Shown here in pieces: positions 14,411-19,547 of a stretch of 51,686 nt of DNA. The stretch spans positions 1 to 51,686 of the forward strand of contig JAFWAA010000031.1 of assembly GCA_017507905.1 (NCBI GenBank), in the 5' to 3' direction. Made by a program: the position numbers and the translations under genes. Source of the DNA: Clostridia bacterium (GTDB lineage Bacteria; Bacillota; Clostridia; Oscillospirales; CAG-272). The notes beneath the pieces are model-generated. The model saw only the letters and a program-made list of their open reading frames with translations. It had not been told where the DNA came from and ran no database searches. Positions within the stretch are counted from its first letter, which is position 1. The number at the start of each line of letters is the position of its first letter.

Positions 14411-15490
14411 ATGGATACCAACGATTTCGATTTTGAAAACCGGATCATGACCACAAGCTACACCGCCGAGGATTCGGACGTGGAGACCTCTCTGCGCCCC
14501 AGACACCTTGAGGAGTACGTCGGCCAGGAAAAGGTAAAGGAAAATCTCAAGATCTATATTGAAGCCGCAAAGCAAAGAGGTGAGCCGCTTGACCACGTTC
14601 TGCTTTATGGCCCTCCCGGTCTTGGAAAGACCACGCTCTCCAACATCATCGCCACCGAGATGGGCGTCAATATCCGCATCACCTCCGGCCCTGCCATTGA
14701 AAAGCAAGGCGACCTTGCCGCCATTCTAACCAACCTCAACGAGGGTGACGTGCTTTTCATTGACGAGATCCACCGTCTTTCGCGCTCGGTCGAGGAGATC
14801 CTTTATCCCGCGATGGAGGATTACGCCCTGGACATCATCATCGGCAAGGGCCCGTCCGCCAGAAGCATTCGCATTGATCTTCCCCGCTTTACCCTGATCG
14901 GCGCGACCACGCGCGCGGGACAGATGACCACGCCTCTGCGCGACCGCTTTGGCGTGATCCTCAAGCTTGAGCTTTACACGCCCGAGGAGCTGGCCACCAT
15001 CGTTCGCCGCAACGCAGGGATCCTTGGCATGGAGATCGCGGACGACGGCGCGATTGAGATCGCAAGCCGCTCTCGCGGAACCCCCCGTATTGCCAACCGT
15101 CTGCTCAAGCGCGTGCGCGATTTTGCCCAGATCATGTCCGACGGCGCGATCGACCGAAAGATCGCAAGCTACGCGCTCAACAAGCTGGAGATCGACCACC
15201 TGGGGCTGGACAACGTGGACCGCAGAATGCTCGAGACCATCATCAAGTTCTACGACGGCGGACCCGTTGGTCTTGAAACGCTTGCCGCAACGGTGGGCGA
15301 GGAGGCCGTGACGCTTGAGGATATGTACGAGCCTTATCTGATGCAGATCGGCTTTTTGAGCCGTACGCCGCGAGGCAGATGCGTCACCCGTCTGGCCTGC
15401 GAGCACCTCGGACTTCCCTACCGCGCCCCCCGTGCTGTGGGCGGCGATCAGATCCGCTTCTTTGACGAAGCCGAGGACAAGCACGAATAA
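14411..15490 (+). CDS. ruvB: Holliday junction branch-migration ATPase
   Basis: [40 protein letters not shown]. Confidence 0.98.
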
Positions 15491-15519
15491 CGAGAATACA
15501 AAAAACGGTCTGCCCTGTA

Positions 15520-15723
15520 GGCGTGATACTCTTAGCGGAGTATCACGCCAACTCTATTCGCCTGCGGCGAGTGATATTGCTTCGCAGTGTTATTCGGCTT
15601 ACGCCGAGTGGTATTCGCTTCGCGAGTTTCAGGGCGAATAGAATATCACTGAAGCCGCAAGGCTTCAATATCACGATTGCGATAGCAATCATATCACTCT
15701 TTGCGAGAGCAAAGAATATCACT
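15520..15723. repeat. Inverted array of AATATCAC spacers alternating with variable GN(N)A-loop hairpins (REP/REPIN-like)
   Basis: Four (A)ATATCAC on plus (15642, 15667, 15691, 15715), three GTGNTATT on plus (15571, 15587, 15608), seven short hairpins and a perfect 12-bp hairpin at 15520-15549. Confidence 0.85.
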
Positions 15724-15732
15724 GAAAGCAGA

Positions 15733-15778
15733 AAAAGAGAGAGCAAAGCGGTTTTTCTTTCCGCATTGTTCTCTCTTT
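15733..15778. terminator. Hairpin between convergent ruvB and membrane-protein gene
   Basis: AAAGAGAGAGCAAAGCGG pairs imperfectly with CCGCATTGTTCTCTCTTT. Confidence 0.6.
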
Positions 15779-15902
15779 ATGTTTTTATCGCAAGTTTCGC
15801 ATTTGTTTAACAAATGCATCGGGCTATGCCCATACCCCTATTATAAATTCTCCGATAAGGACATCACCCGTGAGGGCAGACCGTTTTTTCTTGTGCGAGG
15901 GA

Positions 15903-16499
15903 TCAACGCTTGCGGCGCTTATTCTGCAGGCGCTCTCTCTCGGTCTCGTTGACGTAGGAGCTGAAGGCCGAGGTGAATTTGACGTCACGCAATCCGAGAT
16001 TGTAGGTGATCGCCGAAAGAAGCATGGCCGGGATCGGGAGCAGGAAATAGACCCACCAAAAGGAATTGAGCGGCACACCGCCAACGGGAATGGCAAGCAG
16101 TCCCACGAACATTCCCTCCAGAATCGTTGCGGCAAAGGCACCGATCGCACCGAGATGGCTGGTAAAGGGGGTATCCAAAAGCGAGCCGAGCATAATAAAG
16201 ATCGCCAGCAGGAAGTTGACCGCATTGGCGGCCAGCGAGATCCAAAGGCCGGTCAGGGGTGCTCTCGGCTTGCGTCCGGACTCTACCGACACGCGGTCGC
16301 GGTAGCCGATGTCCCAGGTCATCGTGTAGAGCAGGAAGAGATAAAACAGGATCGCTCCAACGCTCGTGACGTTGCGCAGGACGGGGCTTTGGGCGTGTCC
16401 TGCCGCGAGGGCAAGCGAAAAGCCGAAGATCGCCGTTCCAAACTGATTGAGGAACATCTTGAGCATATCGTAGGAATAAGTCTTAAAAAAAGCTTTCAT
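15903..16499 (-). CDS. Hypothetical membrane protein (about 4-5 TM)
   Basis: Host-like codon usage, GGAGG RBS, own promoter, hydrophobic segments. Family not recognised. Confidence 0.8.
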   Translation of the reverse strand: MKAFFKTYSYDMLKMFLNQFGTAIFGFSLALAAGHAQSPVLRNVTSVGAILFYLFLLYTMTWDIGYRDRVSVESGRKPRAPLTGLWISLAANAVNFLLAIFIMLGSLLDTPFTSHLGAIGAFAATILEGMFVGLLAIPVGGVPLNSFWWVYFLLPIPAMLLSAITYNLGLRDVKFTSAFSSYVNETERERLQNKRRKR

Positions 16500-16554: not shown

Positions 16555-16603
16555 CCGAAGCGCACAAAAATTTACAATTTATCAACTAAAATATCACGAT
16601 GTG

Positions 16604-16612
16604 TGCTATAAT
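16604..16612 (+). promoter_or_regulatory. Extended -10 promoter of recombinase gene
   Basis: TGCTATAAT, no good -35. Confidence 0.55.
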
Positions 16613-16684
16613 AAAAGGAGGAAAGGCGCAAAACGAGCCGTTTTTTTGCCGCACCGCATCTTTTTTCGGAAAGGAGGAATACGC

Positions 16685-17692
16685 ATGGGAAAGCTGATCT
16701 CGATTCGGGAGTTCTCTCCCCTCATTCAGGAATTCGCCGCCTATAAATCCTCCATTCAGGGCTGCTCGCAAAAAACGGTGGAGGAATATCTGCTCGATCT
16801 GCGCACCTTCTTCCGCTATCTCGTGGCGCGGGAAAAGGATATCGATCCGCACTCCGCGGAGTTTTCTACCCTTGATATCAGCTCTATCGGTCTGCGCGAG
16901 CTGGAAAAGATCCACGCCGAGGATCTCTACGATTTTCTGCTTTACGTCAATCACACGCGCGAAAACCAATGGGCGGCGCGCTCGCGCAAGCTCTCGGCCA
17001 TTCGTTCGCTTTACAAATACCTGGTCAACAAAAAGCACTATCTGGAGTACAACCCCACCACCGACATTGATTCCCCCAAGCCCGCAAAGGCTCTGCCCAA
17101 GGTGCTGACGCTGGACGAGGCCGAGCGCCTGCTGGACGCCGTGGACAAGGATCGCAATTCCCCCACGCGCGTTCGCGATTACGCGATCCTCACGCTCTTT
17201 CTCAACTGCGGAATGCGTGTTTCCGAGCTTGTTGGCATTGATCTGCGCGATCTTGATTCGGATTTTCAGTCGGTGCGCGTTACGGGAAAAGGAAACAAGG
17301 AGCGCATCATCTATCTTAACCAGGCCTGCCAGACCGCGCTTTGCGATTACGCGATCCAGAGGCTGAGCCAGAAATACGCCAAAGTGCATGACCCTGCCCT
17401 CTTTTTAAGCCGCCTGGAAAAGCGCATCAGCGTCAAGACCGTGCAAGCCATGGTCTACAAGTATCTGCGCGCCGCGGGACTCGGCTCCAAGGGATACTCG
17501 GTACATAAGCTCCGCCACACCGCCGCCACGCTGATGTATCAATCCGGGCAGGTGGACGTGCGCGTGCTGAAGGAGATCCTGGGCCACGAGCAGCTCAACA
17601 CCACGCAGATCTATACGCACGTCAGCAACACGGACATCGAACGCGCTATGCAAAAGAATCCCCTCGCAACAAAGAGGAGATCGAAGAAATAA
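16685..17692 (+). CDS. Tyrosine recombinase, XerC/XerD family
   Basis: Complete R-K-H-R-H-Y set (GMRVSEL, GKGNKER, HKLRH, LGHEQL, TTQIY) and an N-terminal SAM-like domain. Start MGKLIS after AAAGGAGG. Confidence 0.92.
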   Translation: MGKLISIREFSPLIQEFAAYKSSIQGCSQKTVEEYLLDLRTFFRYLVAREKDIDPHSAEFSTLDISSIGLRELEKIHAEDLYDFLLYVNHTRENQWAARSRKLSAIRSLYKYLVNKKHYLEYNPTTDIDSPKPAKALPKVLTLDEAERLLDAVDKDRNSPTRVRDYAILTLFLNCGMRVSELVGIDLRDLDSDFQSVRVTGKGNKERIIYLNQACQTALCDYAIQRLSQKYAKVHDPALFLSRLEKRISVKTVQAMVYKYLRAAGLGSKGYSVHKLRHTAATLMYQSGQVDVRVLKEILGHEQLNTTQIYTHVSNTDIERAMQKNPLATKRRSKK

Positions 17693-17802: not shown

Positions 17803-17881
17803 GGATACAAGGGCGGCCCGTCGCCCTTGATGATATACGCCTCGCTTCGCGCGGCGATGATATGCCAAGCCTGCGGCTTGG
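17803..17881. repeat. Second spacer/hairpin array (ATGATAT spacers, three hairpins)
   Basis: CAAGGGCG/CGCCCTTG; GATGATATAC; CGC-TTC-GCG hairpin; GATGATATG; CCAAGCC-TGC-GGCTTGG. Confidence 0.75.
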
Positions 17882-17931: not shown

Positions 17932-17961
17932 GAGTAATTGGTGAATAGGATACAAAATCCT

Positions 17962-18035
17962 AATGGGTTCATTTTGCAAAATGGGTTCACTTTTTGTAGA
18001 AAATGGGTTCACTTTTTTTGCAAAAAATGGGTTCA
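17962..18035 (+). repeat. Four direct repeats AATGGGTTCA
   Basis: Exact 10-mers at 17962, 17980, 18002 and 18026. Confidence 0.9.
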
Positions 18036-18055
18036 AATTTAACGATTGCCAAGCA

Positions 18056-18796
18056 TTAGTCTTCGTTGTTTTTTGTTATCATTTTCCAAGTCAAAGAACG
18101 TGCGCGGAAATATATATATTCCTCCGTTAATTCTTCTACACTCTCTATGCAGTCGTCAACCCAATAAACAAATCCATCGTGGAACAAAATGTTCGAATCC
18201 ATAATATCGGGCATAGTGTTGTCGTCATAATTGAAGTGTATTAAAACATCCTTTTTAAATTCTAATATAATATCGCATTCCCAACATCCAGTAAATAATA
18301 CACGAACGCAGCTTGAATCATTATAGTTTTCTTTTAATTCATAACTAATGTTTTTTATTCTAGCATCATGAAATCCCCAAGCGGCACTCAATAAATTATC
18401 TGCATCTTTGAGGTTTTTAACTCGTTTCCATTCGCCTGTATCAATGTTTTTGTTTTGCTCTTCTGCAATTTTGATGTATTTTTCATCAACAGGTTTCCCG
18501 TCTTTGATTTGCTTTATTAAGTCACAATTATCCAAAAGCCAAGAATATCCGAAGCAGTCTTTATAAGTTGTTACCATAGATAGTTTAATTTCTTTCTTTT
18601 CGACCATATCTGCAATATCAGTATCTATTATAAAGACCTTTCTTTTAAGAGAAGGCTTCGTATTATATACATTCAGTAATTCAAATTGTTTATTTTCAGT
18701 ATCAAAAACGATTACACACTCATACCATCCGGGATTAAATTTTGCAAATATATGTGAATAGTATTCTCTATTATCAGATACAATTTTTGCAAGCAT
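18056..18796 (-). CDS. AT-rich hypothetical protein (horizontally acquired)
   Basis: 246-aa ORF with AGGAGGTG RBS and its own promoter. Codon usage differs from the host. Contains an FHDA motif. Confidence 0.85.
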   Translation of the reverse strand: MLAKIVSDNREYYSHIFAKFNPGWYECVIVFDTENKQFELLNVYNTKPSLKRKVFIIDTDIADMVEKKEIKLSMVTTYKDCFGYSWLLDNCDLIKQIKDGKPVDEKYIKIAEEQNKNIDTGEWKRVKNLKDADNLLSAAWGFHDARIKNISYELKENYNDSSCVRVLFTGCWECDIILEFKKDVLIHFNYDDNTMPDIMDSNILFHDGFVYWVDDCIESVEELTEEYIYFRARSLTWKMITKNNED

Positions 18797-18824
18797 AAGG
18801 CACCTCCTATAATAAGTTGGTTAT

Positions 18825-18853
18825 AGTATATCATAAAATCATCAATTATGCAA
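18825..18853 (-). promoter_or_regulatory. sigma-A promoter of islet gene
   Basis: TTGCAT-17bp-TATACT with extended TG. Confidence 0.75.
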
Positions 18854-18902
18854 TGACTATTGCAGGTGTATTTTTTTGAATCGCAGTTTTAATTAAGGAT
18901 CT

Positions 18903-18996
18903 ATTTTAACGATTACTCCCACAAATTTAACGAATACACACAATTTTAACGAAACACCATAAAATTAACGAATACCTACAATTTTAACGCAAGCAA
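18903..18996 (+). repeat. Five direct repeats with TTAACG core, period 21/19/19/19 bp
   Basis: Units such as ACAAATTTAACGAATACAC, ACAATTTTAACGAAACACC, ATAAAATTAACGAATACCT, ACAATTTTAACGCAAGCAA. Confidence 0.88.
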
Positions 18997-19154
18997 AAGG
19001 AGACCATCGACCGAAGGAGCAAATAATCTCGGAAGATAGGCTTTCTTTATCGAAAACTGTGATTTTTATGCGTCAAAAGGGCAAAAATACCCCTAAAAAG
19101 CAATAAAAACGCAGATTAGGCACAAATAATTGTATCCTATTCTGCGTTCTTATT

Positions 19155-19547
19155 TGGTGGAGATGAGGAGAATCGAACTCCTGTCCGAAAACCCCTTGAT
19201 AAAACTTTCTTCGTGGGCAGTCTGTTGTTTAGAATTCCCTCGCGAGGACGCGAACAGACACGCTTCCTCTTGCGGTAGCCCTTTTTTGCTTGATCGGTTC
19301 AAGAGCGAACGGCCGATGCAAGTTCACCGCTCAAATGACGCTCAGTCCAAGGCCGCGGTACTCCTTGGAGGAACGGGTGACCCGCAGGTCACGGCACTGC
19401 CGGTTTTACGTCAAACGACGTAAAACTTAGGCAGCCATAGCAACAGTATTGTTGTCGTTTATTGTTTAATGTTAGGCCTTTATCGAGATTGCCCGGCTCG
19501 CCACGCTTATCTTATCGCAGAATCCCCGTCGAAACCATTGCACCCCC
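19155..19547 (-). ncRNA. ssrA: tmRNA
   Basis: 5' GGGGGUGCAAUGGUUUCGAC; 3' GGAGUUCGAUUCUCCUCAUCUCCACCA; G3-U70 wobble; tag ORF (A)DNNTVAMAA-stop at 19456-19427. Directly downstream of smpB. Confidence 0.97.

Follow-up and report, generated by a model that had tools for sequence, protein, structure and literature searches.

The ruvB locus and the two-armed array

The stretch of DNA that was analysed, hereafter the window, is a contig of 51,686 nucleotides from a Clostridia bacterium. In it, ruvB is followed by a convergent gene, with which it has a bidirectional terminator in common, and by a tyrosine recombinase gene (16601-17692) and the tmRNA gene. The terminator is interrupted: its apical loop holds an element of 351 bp without ORF, starting with GGCGTGATAC and ending with CATCACCCG (Table 1). 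An earlier note on this locus had described an array of hairpins ending at 15723; these bounds are too short, and the note had missed that the array forms the core of an element with terminal inverted repeats, placed within a split terminator. The terminal repeats are evident from the left core GTGATACTCTTAGCGGAG, which matches the right end when the latter is read in reverse complement (GTGATGTCCTTATCGGAG). The stem at the left end is invariant in 71 distinct copies, with the caveat that this stem was fixed by the scan pattern that retrieved them. One copy (C7:493-522) has the 10-nt loop of its left-end hairpin in inverted form, TCCGCTTGGA vs TCCAAGCGGA in the copies on contigs C17 and C33.

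Table 1. Features of the element at ruvB and of the terminator that it interrupts
Feature	Position	Strand	Description
Left part of ruvB terminator	15500-15515	+	A-run and left half-stem CGGTCTGCCC (15506-15515); pairs with 15874-15883
Left copy of 2-bp duplication	15518-15519		TA (right copy TG, imperfect here)
Whole element	15520-15870		351 bp
Left end	15520-15549	+	Terminal inverted repeat folded as hairpin GGCGTGATAC-N10-GTATCACGCC
Left arm	15550-15642	+	Four hairpins, AGTGNTATT linkers; enclosed by pair 15553-15562 / 15633-15642
Right arm	15643-15722	-	Four ATATCAC words with a hairpin in each of the three gaps; reads as Gut-1 on the minus strand
First word and hairpin of right arm	from 15643	+	ATATCAC, T-GAAGCC[GCAA]GGCTTC-A
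Second word and hairpin	from 15668	+	ATATCAC, GATTGC[GATA]GCAATC
Third word and hairpin	from 15691	+	ATATCAC, TCTTTGC[GAGA]GCAAAGA
Fourth word	from 15716	+	ATATCAC
Internal two-way terminator-like hairpin	15731-15786		AAAGAGAGAGCAA ... TTGTTCTCTCTTT; A-run before, T-run after
Two-hairpin module, ~55 nt	15787-15845	-	Conserved, TATAAT in front; recognised by comparison of copies
Right end	15850-15870	-	Terminal inverted repeat CTCCGATAAGGACATCACCCG; pattern match 15850-15867 on the - strand
Right copy of 2-bp duplication	15871-15872		TG
Right part of ruvB terminator	15874-15889	+	Half-stem GGGCAGACCG (15874-15883) and T-run

The two-armed grammar of the array, in which constant short words alternate with variable hairpins, had been read correctly and was confirmed on the sequence, by word count and by folding. 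In the right arm the hairpins are perfect and the ATATCAC words are spaced at 25, 23 and 25 nt. Read on the minus strand, the left arm obeys this grammar too; its linkers are ATACCAC, ATAACAC and ATATCAC, and its hairpins are capped by the loops GAA, GTAA, GAA and GCA. ATATCAC occurs nine times in the whole window against 2.75 expected, a count that none of 100 shuffles reached, and five of the nine copies lie within 15571-15722. Single arms folded with z values of -4.5 to -6.6 relative to shuffles, as DNA or RNA and on either strand. For the whole insert (15501-15890) z was -13.0 on the plus strand and -12.5 on the minus strand, and both folds are closed by the split terminator stem, which re-forms. 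The internal terminator-like hairpin also forms in both of these folds and is kept in gene-less copies of other genomes; a simple terminator scan omits it because its loop is longer than 8 nt.

Both arms match the Gut-1 motif

A permissive Rfam scan of 15400-16000 matched each arm to the full-length model of Gut-1 (RF01706): the left arm at 15549-15619 on the plus strand (model 1-77, 48.1 bits, E 2e-8) and the right arm at 15638-15724 on the minus strand (model 1-77, 43.9 bits, E 2.3e-7). The curated gathering cut-off is 50 bits, and the scan of the window at gathering thresholds returned tmRNA only, both arms falling under that value. Five paralogous arrays of the same genome exceed it (50.5-69.6 bits), and the 1.61-Mb genome contains 28 Gut-1 matches, many of them not more than a few hundred bases from the end of a contig. 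As both arms match the full-length model, they are two convergent copies of a catalogued motif, which agrees with the earlier proposal that the arms are inverted copies of one unit. The strand preferred in that proposal is the opposite of the one that Rfam models in each arm. The motif itself is thus already catalogued and the arms are near-threshold members of it. The earlier note had considered an undescribed family and had named a match to a known Rfam family as the outcome that would remove the novelty; at the level of the motif, the novelty is gone.

The array at ruvB has in common with Gut-1 the three tandem hairpins, linkers of the GUGAAAU type, the first hairpin UUCGCC...GGCGA and the gut as source. 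It differs from the catalogued motif in scoring below the cut-off, in having GUGAUAU as linker and in being here a multi-copy domain of an insertion element. Gut-1 was described from human-gut sequences by Weinberg et al. 2010 (PMC2864571), who rated it a likely non-coding RNA with covariation; the paper has no word on repeat nature, inverted pairing or mobile context. Rfam files the motif as 'Gene; sRNA'. Our literature search returned no paper on the function of Gut-1 and none on terminator-loop MITEs.

The structure of the array is under selection

Covariation was analysed in an alignment of 71 distinct copies of the left end and left arm, taken from the matches listed. In this alignment 99% of the cells are paired, and double changes occur in 6-7 pairs (32-41 cells), a number reached in none of 500 shuffles, with slid controls far lower. 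The compensatory changes fall in hairpins 3 and 4 of the left arm and in the long-range helix, one pair of which is CG in 59 copies, UA in eight and AU in one. These data uphold the earlier suggestion of selection on structure and show that the proposed long-range pairing of TCTATTCGCC (15553-15562) with GGCGAATAGA (15633-15642) is real. Right arms among the matches listed have from zero to three units, mostly three (57/90), drawn from a shared position-specific pool, and their loops vary freely. The stems do differ from one another, as had been noted, but they do not vary freely: the hairpins are position-specific, and the pool from which they come is limited, 209 units comprising 76 distinct ones. 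Moreover, the fourth linker of the left arm covaries with the first linker of the right arm (A/T 39, G/T 22, G/C 9, A/C 1; Fisher p 0.002, not corrected for relatedness), which fits the cross-arm pairing predicted by the fold of the whole element.

Which strand and which molecule acts was approached through the loops and the wobble pairs. Among the 65 hairpin units in 26 arrays of the genome, the closing pair is C-G in 60, and on the ATATCAC strand 51 have loops of the G..A type (GAA 22, GCA 11, GCAA 9). Loops of the C-GNA-G and C-GNNA-G forms belong to a class of very stable DNA mini-hairpins, and their presence favours the ATATCAC strand. On the other hand, each left-arm hairpin has at its base a T.G wobble that does not vary and is present only on the Gut-1 strand; this favours the Gut-1 strand of each arm. 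Inside the stems there is no asymmetry between G.T and A.C mismatches, both of which are equally rare.

The ruvB site is empty in a sister genome

In the comparison of the ruvB locus among relatives that had been proposed, the site is occupied in the window and empty in the sister genome G017. In that genome, which is 95% identical across ruvB, the query segments 1-616 and 975-1600 lie only 5 nt apart, and the joint (contig C190) reads AAAAAAACGGCCTGCCC-ATCAC-GGGCAGACCGTTTTTT, an intact two-way terminator. A contig from a public sequencing run carries another empty-site allele, CTGCCC-CGTGA-GGGCAG (joint 15504 to 15867). The sister genome also contains a partial copy, the right part, of the variant found at ruvB. 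This copy is 99% identical and lies at another locus in a different terminator; it ends in CATCACCCA-GA, after which follows the 3' half of that other terminator. A BLAST search of 15441-15960 against the 1.6-Mb genome of the window found about 11 copies of the composite element, and the word depth of the arm sequences in gut metagenomes is about 1000 times that of the single-copy genes on either side. The loop of the empty terminator, ATCAC in the sister genome and CGTGA in the metagenome allele, looks as if it had been flipped.

Taken as a whole, the segment 15520-15870 is very probably a non-autonomous MITE-like element with a Gut-1 array as its core, lodged in the loop of the ruvB terminator. 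Within this element the array is a domain that is conserved and selected for its structure, and not a locus-specific regulator of ruvB. The earlier statement that it is not itself a terminator also holds, and the array is a dispersed, structure-selected repeat.

A family of elements in terminator loops

A scan with the left-end hairpin pattern, using one genome per species, gave at least 120 loci. The carriers among the matches listed are all uncultured Oscillospiraceae, Acutalibacteraceae, Eubacteriales or Clostridia, from animal and human guts. Fifty-nine of the elements among the matches listed have both of the conserved ends, 46 of them measuring 298-395 bp and 13 being larger. The flanking dinucleotides are identical in 50 of these 59 (TT 41, AT 6, TA 2, AA 1), while the pair TA/TG at ruvB is an imperfect duplication. 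In 36 of 56 listed elements the two flanks can pair with each other over 8 bp or more, as against 1% of control pairs of mismatched flanks; an A-run is present on the left in 48 of the 56 and a T-run on the right in 53. Eight insertions were inspected by eye: those on C21 and C33, three recovered by joining contigs that overlap by 141 nt, and three in other families of the order. In every one of them the insertion point is the loop of an A-run/stem/T-run hairpin. With respect to the flanking genes the orientation of insertion is unbiased (10 against 6). No match to the element was found in a plasmid collection, and a phage collection gave one weak match to the left arm, in an unannotated faecal phage contig.

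The distribution bears on the Rfam classification of Gut-1, according to which the array would be a free-standing sRNA gene acting in trans or on ruvB or its neighbour. That filing, the covariation by which Weinberg et al. rated the motif a likely RNA, the T.G wobbles seen on the Gut-1 strand only and the presence of pieces of the element in metatranscriptome assemblies would all suit such a gene. The metatranscriptome contigs are unstranded, however, and the depth ratio of the element to its flanks in RNA is close to that in DNA runs. Gut-1 counts in 41 relatives range from 0 to 34 per genome, are patchy within a genus and often include convergent pairs, and neither this range among close relatives nor the empty locus in the sister genome suits a resident gene; the unbiased orientation of insertion also speaks against it. 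The two arms face each other, and therefore no single transcript has both in Gut-1 orientation. Furthermore, no promoter leading into the arms was found in the ruvB copy. We therefore consider a free-standing sRNA gene improbable and retain the mobile element as the explanation of the locus.

Cargo genes and the mobilising enzyme

Longer relatives of 0.7-2.2 kb have the same left end and array as the gene-less form, with cargo genes added. Their order is left end, array, promoter, a leader module of about 55 nt, an AT-rich gene, terminator and right end. The cargo encodes small unknown proteins, a YcxB-like protein and a DUF5714 protein with a low-molecular-weight phosphatase (ArsC-like), as well as proteins that by eye resemble the HAD, NUDIX and GNAT families. 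A member of 2.2 kb (L069; G078:C13:67800-70600) contains between the family ends a restriction-modification pair, an EcoO109I-type endonuclease recognised by Pfam and a 378-aa ORF that reads by eye as a C5 cytosine methyltransferase. In four cargo elements (L082, L100, L146 and L170) the gene directly behind the array belongs to the PF05635 family; most elements do not carry such a gene.

The leader module is present in the ruvB copy too, where it is inverted relative to its orientation in front of the cargo gene and has the internal two-way terminator behind it; a sigma-70 consensus scan gave no full match in that copy. Its stem is GCATTTGT/ACAAATGC at ruvB vs GCCTTTGT/ACAAAGGC elsewhere. The module is made up of GGGC-N3-GCCC, then GCNTTTGT-N3-ACAAANGC and then GAAACTGGCGATAAAA. 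It has a compensatory change from A-U to C-G, is found in either orientation among the window copy and the cargo copies E1-E4, and leads unrelated cargo genes. No Rfam family matched it.

The cargo elements inspected, up to 2.2 kb from end to end, contain no transposase gene. Profiles PF01797, PF00665, PF13358 and PF01609 gave no match in the genome of the window, which is 91.8% complete, or in most carriers. The absence of transposase families is weak evidence, since insertion sequences are often lost from MAGs and all of these genomes are of that kind. The distribution of the profiles for rve (IS3/IS30/IS481), DDE_3 (IS630) and DDE_Tnp_1 (IS4/IS5) has no association with the carriers, and these candidates were rejected. 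A self-BLAST of the genome gave no multi-copy repeat of the size of an insertion sequence.

Two other routes of mobilisation were considered. In the first, the element would be of the REP/REPIN type and its hairpins single-stranded DNA substrates of a RAYT or an IS200/IS605-type Y1 HUH nuclease, a link that had been suggested earlier. The G..A loops and C-G closing pairs of the ATATCAC strand would suit such an enzyme, and palindromes headed by GTAG (GTAGGGGCGAAC...GTTCGCCC) adjoin some arrays. But PF01797 is absent from the genome of the window and from the Gut-1-rich relatives G001, G008, G022, G027 and G036, with 18-34 copies each. It is found in only 6 of 41 relatives, where it has no correlation with Gut-1 copy number, and terminal inverted repeats with a 2-bp duplication are features that Y1 elements lack. 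With PF01797 absent from most Gut-1-rich relatives, the link to HUH nucleases is largely refuted, and this route is highly improbable.

In the second, the elements would move by site-specific serine or tyrosine recombination, as small integrative mobilisable elements do, and the flanking dinucleotide would be a crossover core instead of a target duplication. TT in 41 of the 50 matched pairs is what would be expected if a circle carried the core between sites. Besides, no DDE or Y1 transposase was found among the profiles searched, and the tyrosine recombinase of the window lies 730 bp from the element. However, AT, TA and AA pairs occur in elements with different right-end variants, so that the dinucleotide looks target-determined, and no recombinase is near the other copies, which lie at unrelated housekeeping loci. 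Because of these unrelated loci, no link between the element and its recombinase neighbour is apparent, and recombination of this kind is unlikely.

For the MITE-like element, mobilisation would involve a trans-acting enzyme that makes staggered cuts of 2 bp and inserts the element into the loops of A-run/stem/T-run hairpins. Its dense self-folding on the two strands, together with the internal two-way terminator, may render the insertion nearly harmless to the flanking genes.

Possible functions of the array

The genome of the window has three genes for PF05635 proteins, found by phmmer on six-frame ORFs (C12:25861, C43:3362 and at the C39/C46 junction), and all three have a two-armed array directly in front. 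Each array has its own word: ATGAAGT/ATGATGT, CATGGAAT or GTGATAT. The array ahead of the C39/C46 gene uses GTGATAT/ATATCAC, the same word as the element at ruvB, and the proteins encoded after arrays with the word GTGATAT have diverged from each other. The three arrays occupy C12:25570-25800, C43:3180-3350 and C39:20217-20441, two of them directly after a tRNA gene and its terminator. The closest solved relative of these proteins is PDB 2rld, which has five chains. The S23p protein of Xanthomonas is a homopentameric toroid (PMC4990558). The gene for S23p lies in intervening sequences of 23S rRNA, which are selfish inserts located where helix 45 has its tip, with borders that form a long stem (PMC4990558).

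Among the functions considered for the array, protein docking ranks as the most likely, followed by insulation or stabilisation at the RNA level. According to the first, which we put forward tentatively, the array might be a multivalent platform on which a small oligomeric protein that binds nucleic acids would dock. Such a platform would display identical short words between position-specific hairpins. The best candidate for the docking protein would be the four-helix-bundle family PF05635 (23S-rRNA-IVS protein), as the adjacency of the genes suggests. Words that are constant within an array and different between arrays, separated by structured spacers, would fit an oligomeric reader of sequence and shape better than a terminator or a stabiliser. 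Of the functions listed in the earlier note, the protein-docking scaffold thus stands as the best guess.

According to the second, the element would replace the split terminator with a two-way insulator or 3'-end stabiliser acting on RNA, each arm serving the transcripts from its own side. The convergent Gut-1 orientation of the arms suits this function, as do the compact fold on both strands, the ability of the split stem to re-form and the stems themselves, whose pairs are of the Watson-Crick type on both strands, G.T mismatches being as rare as A.C mismatches. A simple scan also calls two hairpin units terminator-like, each in Gut-1 orientation. Nevertheless, the AUAUUC tail after each hairpin is a poor U-tract, and sister array families of the same genome have the tails GAAAUC or GAAGU, which are not U-rich. 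Moreover, insulation leaves unexplained why words of 7-9 nt are identical within arrays and different between them, and a strong two-way terminator is present inside the element in any case. We consider this function rather unlikely.

The docking reading may be extended to the whole family, in the sense that the two-armed Gut-1 arrays would be the specific partners to which pentameric PF05635 proteins (S23p/Avd-like) bind, and that array and protein would form the core of a new class of elements that seek hairpin loops and have no classical transposase. The ruvB copy, the cargo cassettes and the 23S intervening sequences would be variants of it. This wider proposal is speculative and, in our estimate, somewhat doubtful.

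Relation to known systems

Bacterial MITEs and mobile insertion cassettes, such as Correia, RUP and MIC231, are short, gene-less or with cargo only, and mobilised in trans. The element at ruvB resembles them in its terminal inverted repeats, its many copies, the empty sites in relatives and the short duplication seen across the family. It differs in that neither a parent insertion sequence nor a transposase whose ends match was found for the family, in that shape and not sequence defines its target, the apical loop of terminator hairpins, and in that about 200 nt of it are a conserved hairpin array with compensatory changes.

Intervening sequences of 23S rRNA with an S23p/PF05635 ORF are known from Coxiella and Leptospira. 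They too are selfish inserts of about 350-450 nt at a hairpin tip, with complementary borders forming a long stem, and some members of the present family have a PF05635 four-helix-bundle gene. In contrast, the host hairpin here is the mRNA terminator between ruvB and the convergent ORF and not rRNA helix 25 or 45; the ruvB copy is without ORF and has terminal inverted repeats, and a 2-bp duplication is typical of the family.

Like REP, BIME and REPIN sequences, the arrays are dispersed extragenic palindromic units, clustered and often placed between convergent genes. In contrast to them, there is no RAYT gene in the genome of the window, the constant part is the linker and not the stem, and inverted repeats with a duplication are present here. 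IS1397 and ISKpn1, autonomous elements of the IS3 family with an rve transposase, insert into the loops of REP palindromes. They share with the present family the insertion into a palindromic hairpin loop and the short duplication, but rve is absent from the genome of the window and the target here is terminators.

The Gut-1 core belongs to a terminator-loop-seeking mobile family, none of whose members was seen to encode a transposase, and this is a more unusual object than a plain sRNA or a terminator would be. Gut-1, an orphan 'sRNA' in Rfam since 2010 whose description consists of a single sentence, can now be placed as the folded core of a mobile element found at more than 100 loci in gut Clostridia. 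For this family the loops of terminators are a safe-haven target chosen by shape. Accessory genes equipped with a promoter (restriction-modification, arsenate-reductase-like, NUDIX and GNAT) are delivered to such sites by elements that encode no recognisable transposase. The element is among the commonest repeats of the gut community, and it breaks assemblies. In addition, its adjacency to PF05635 genes proposes a nucleic-acid partner for a protein family that has had no known function since the 23S rRNA intervening sequences were described.

Other repeats in the window and the genome

A second array, one-armed, is located at 17803-17881, with a terminator on either side, where the tyrosine recombinase faces ssrA. 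After each of its GATGATAT linkers comes a hairpin whose loop is TTC or TGC. Beyond it, an AT-rich stretch (17935-19159) adjoins the 3' end of the tmRNA (19155-19547). A minus-strand ORF of 246 aa without Pfam match is located at 18056-18796, with repeats of the TTTAACGA type on both sides.

The self-BLAST of the genome also brought up a GC-rich repeat family of about 500 bp, free of ORFs and with the conserved string GGGCGAGGCTTCGAAGAAGTCCACGAGCG, copies of which are found at C7:1991-2512, C9:33592-34116, C40:2140-2635, C45:14684-15178 and elsewhere. Beside some of these copies there are GTGATAT arrays with a period of 18 and the GTAG-headed palindromes GTAGGGGCGAAC...GTTCGCCC.
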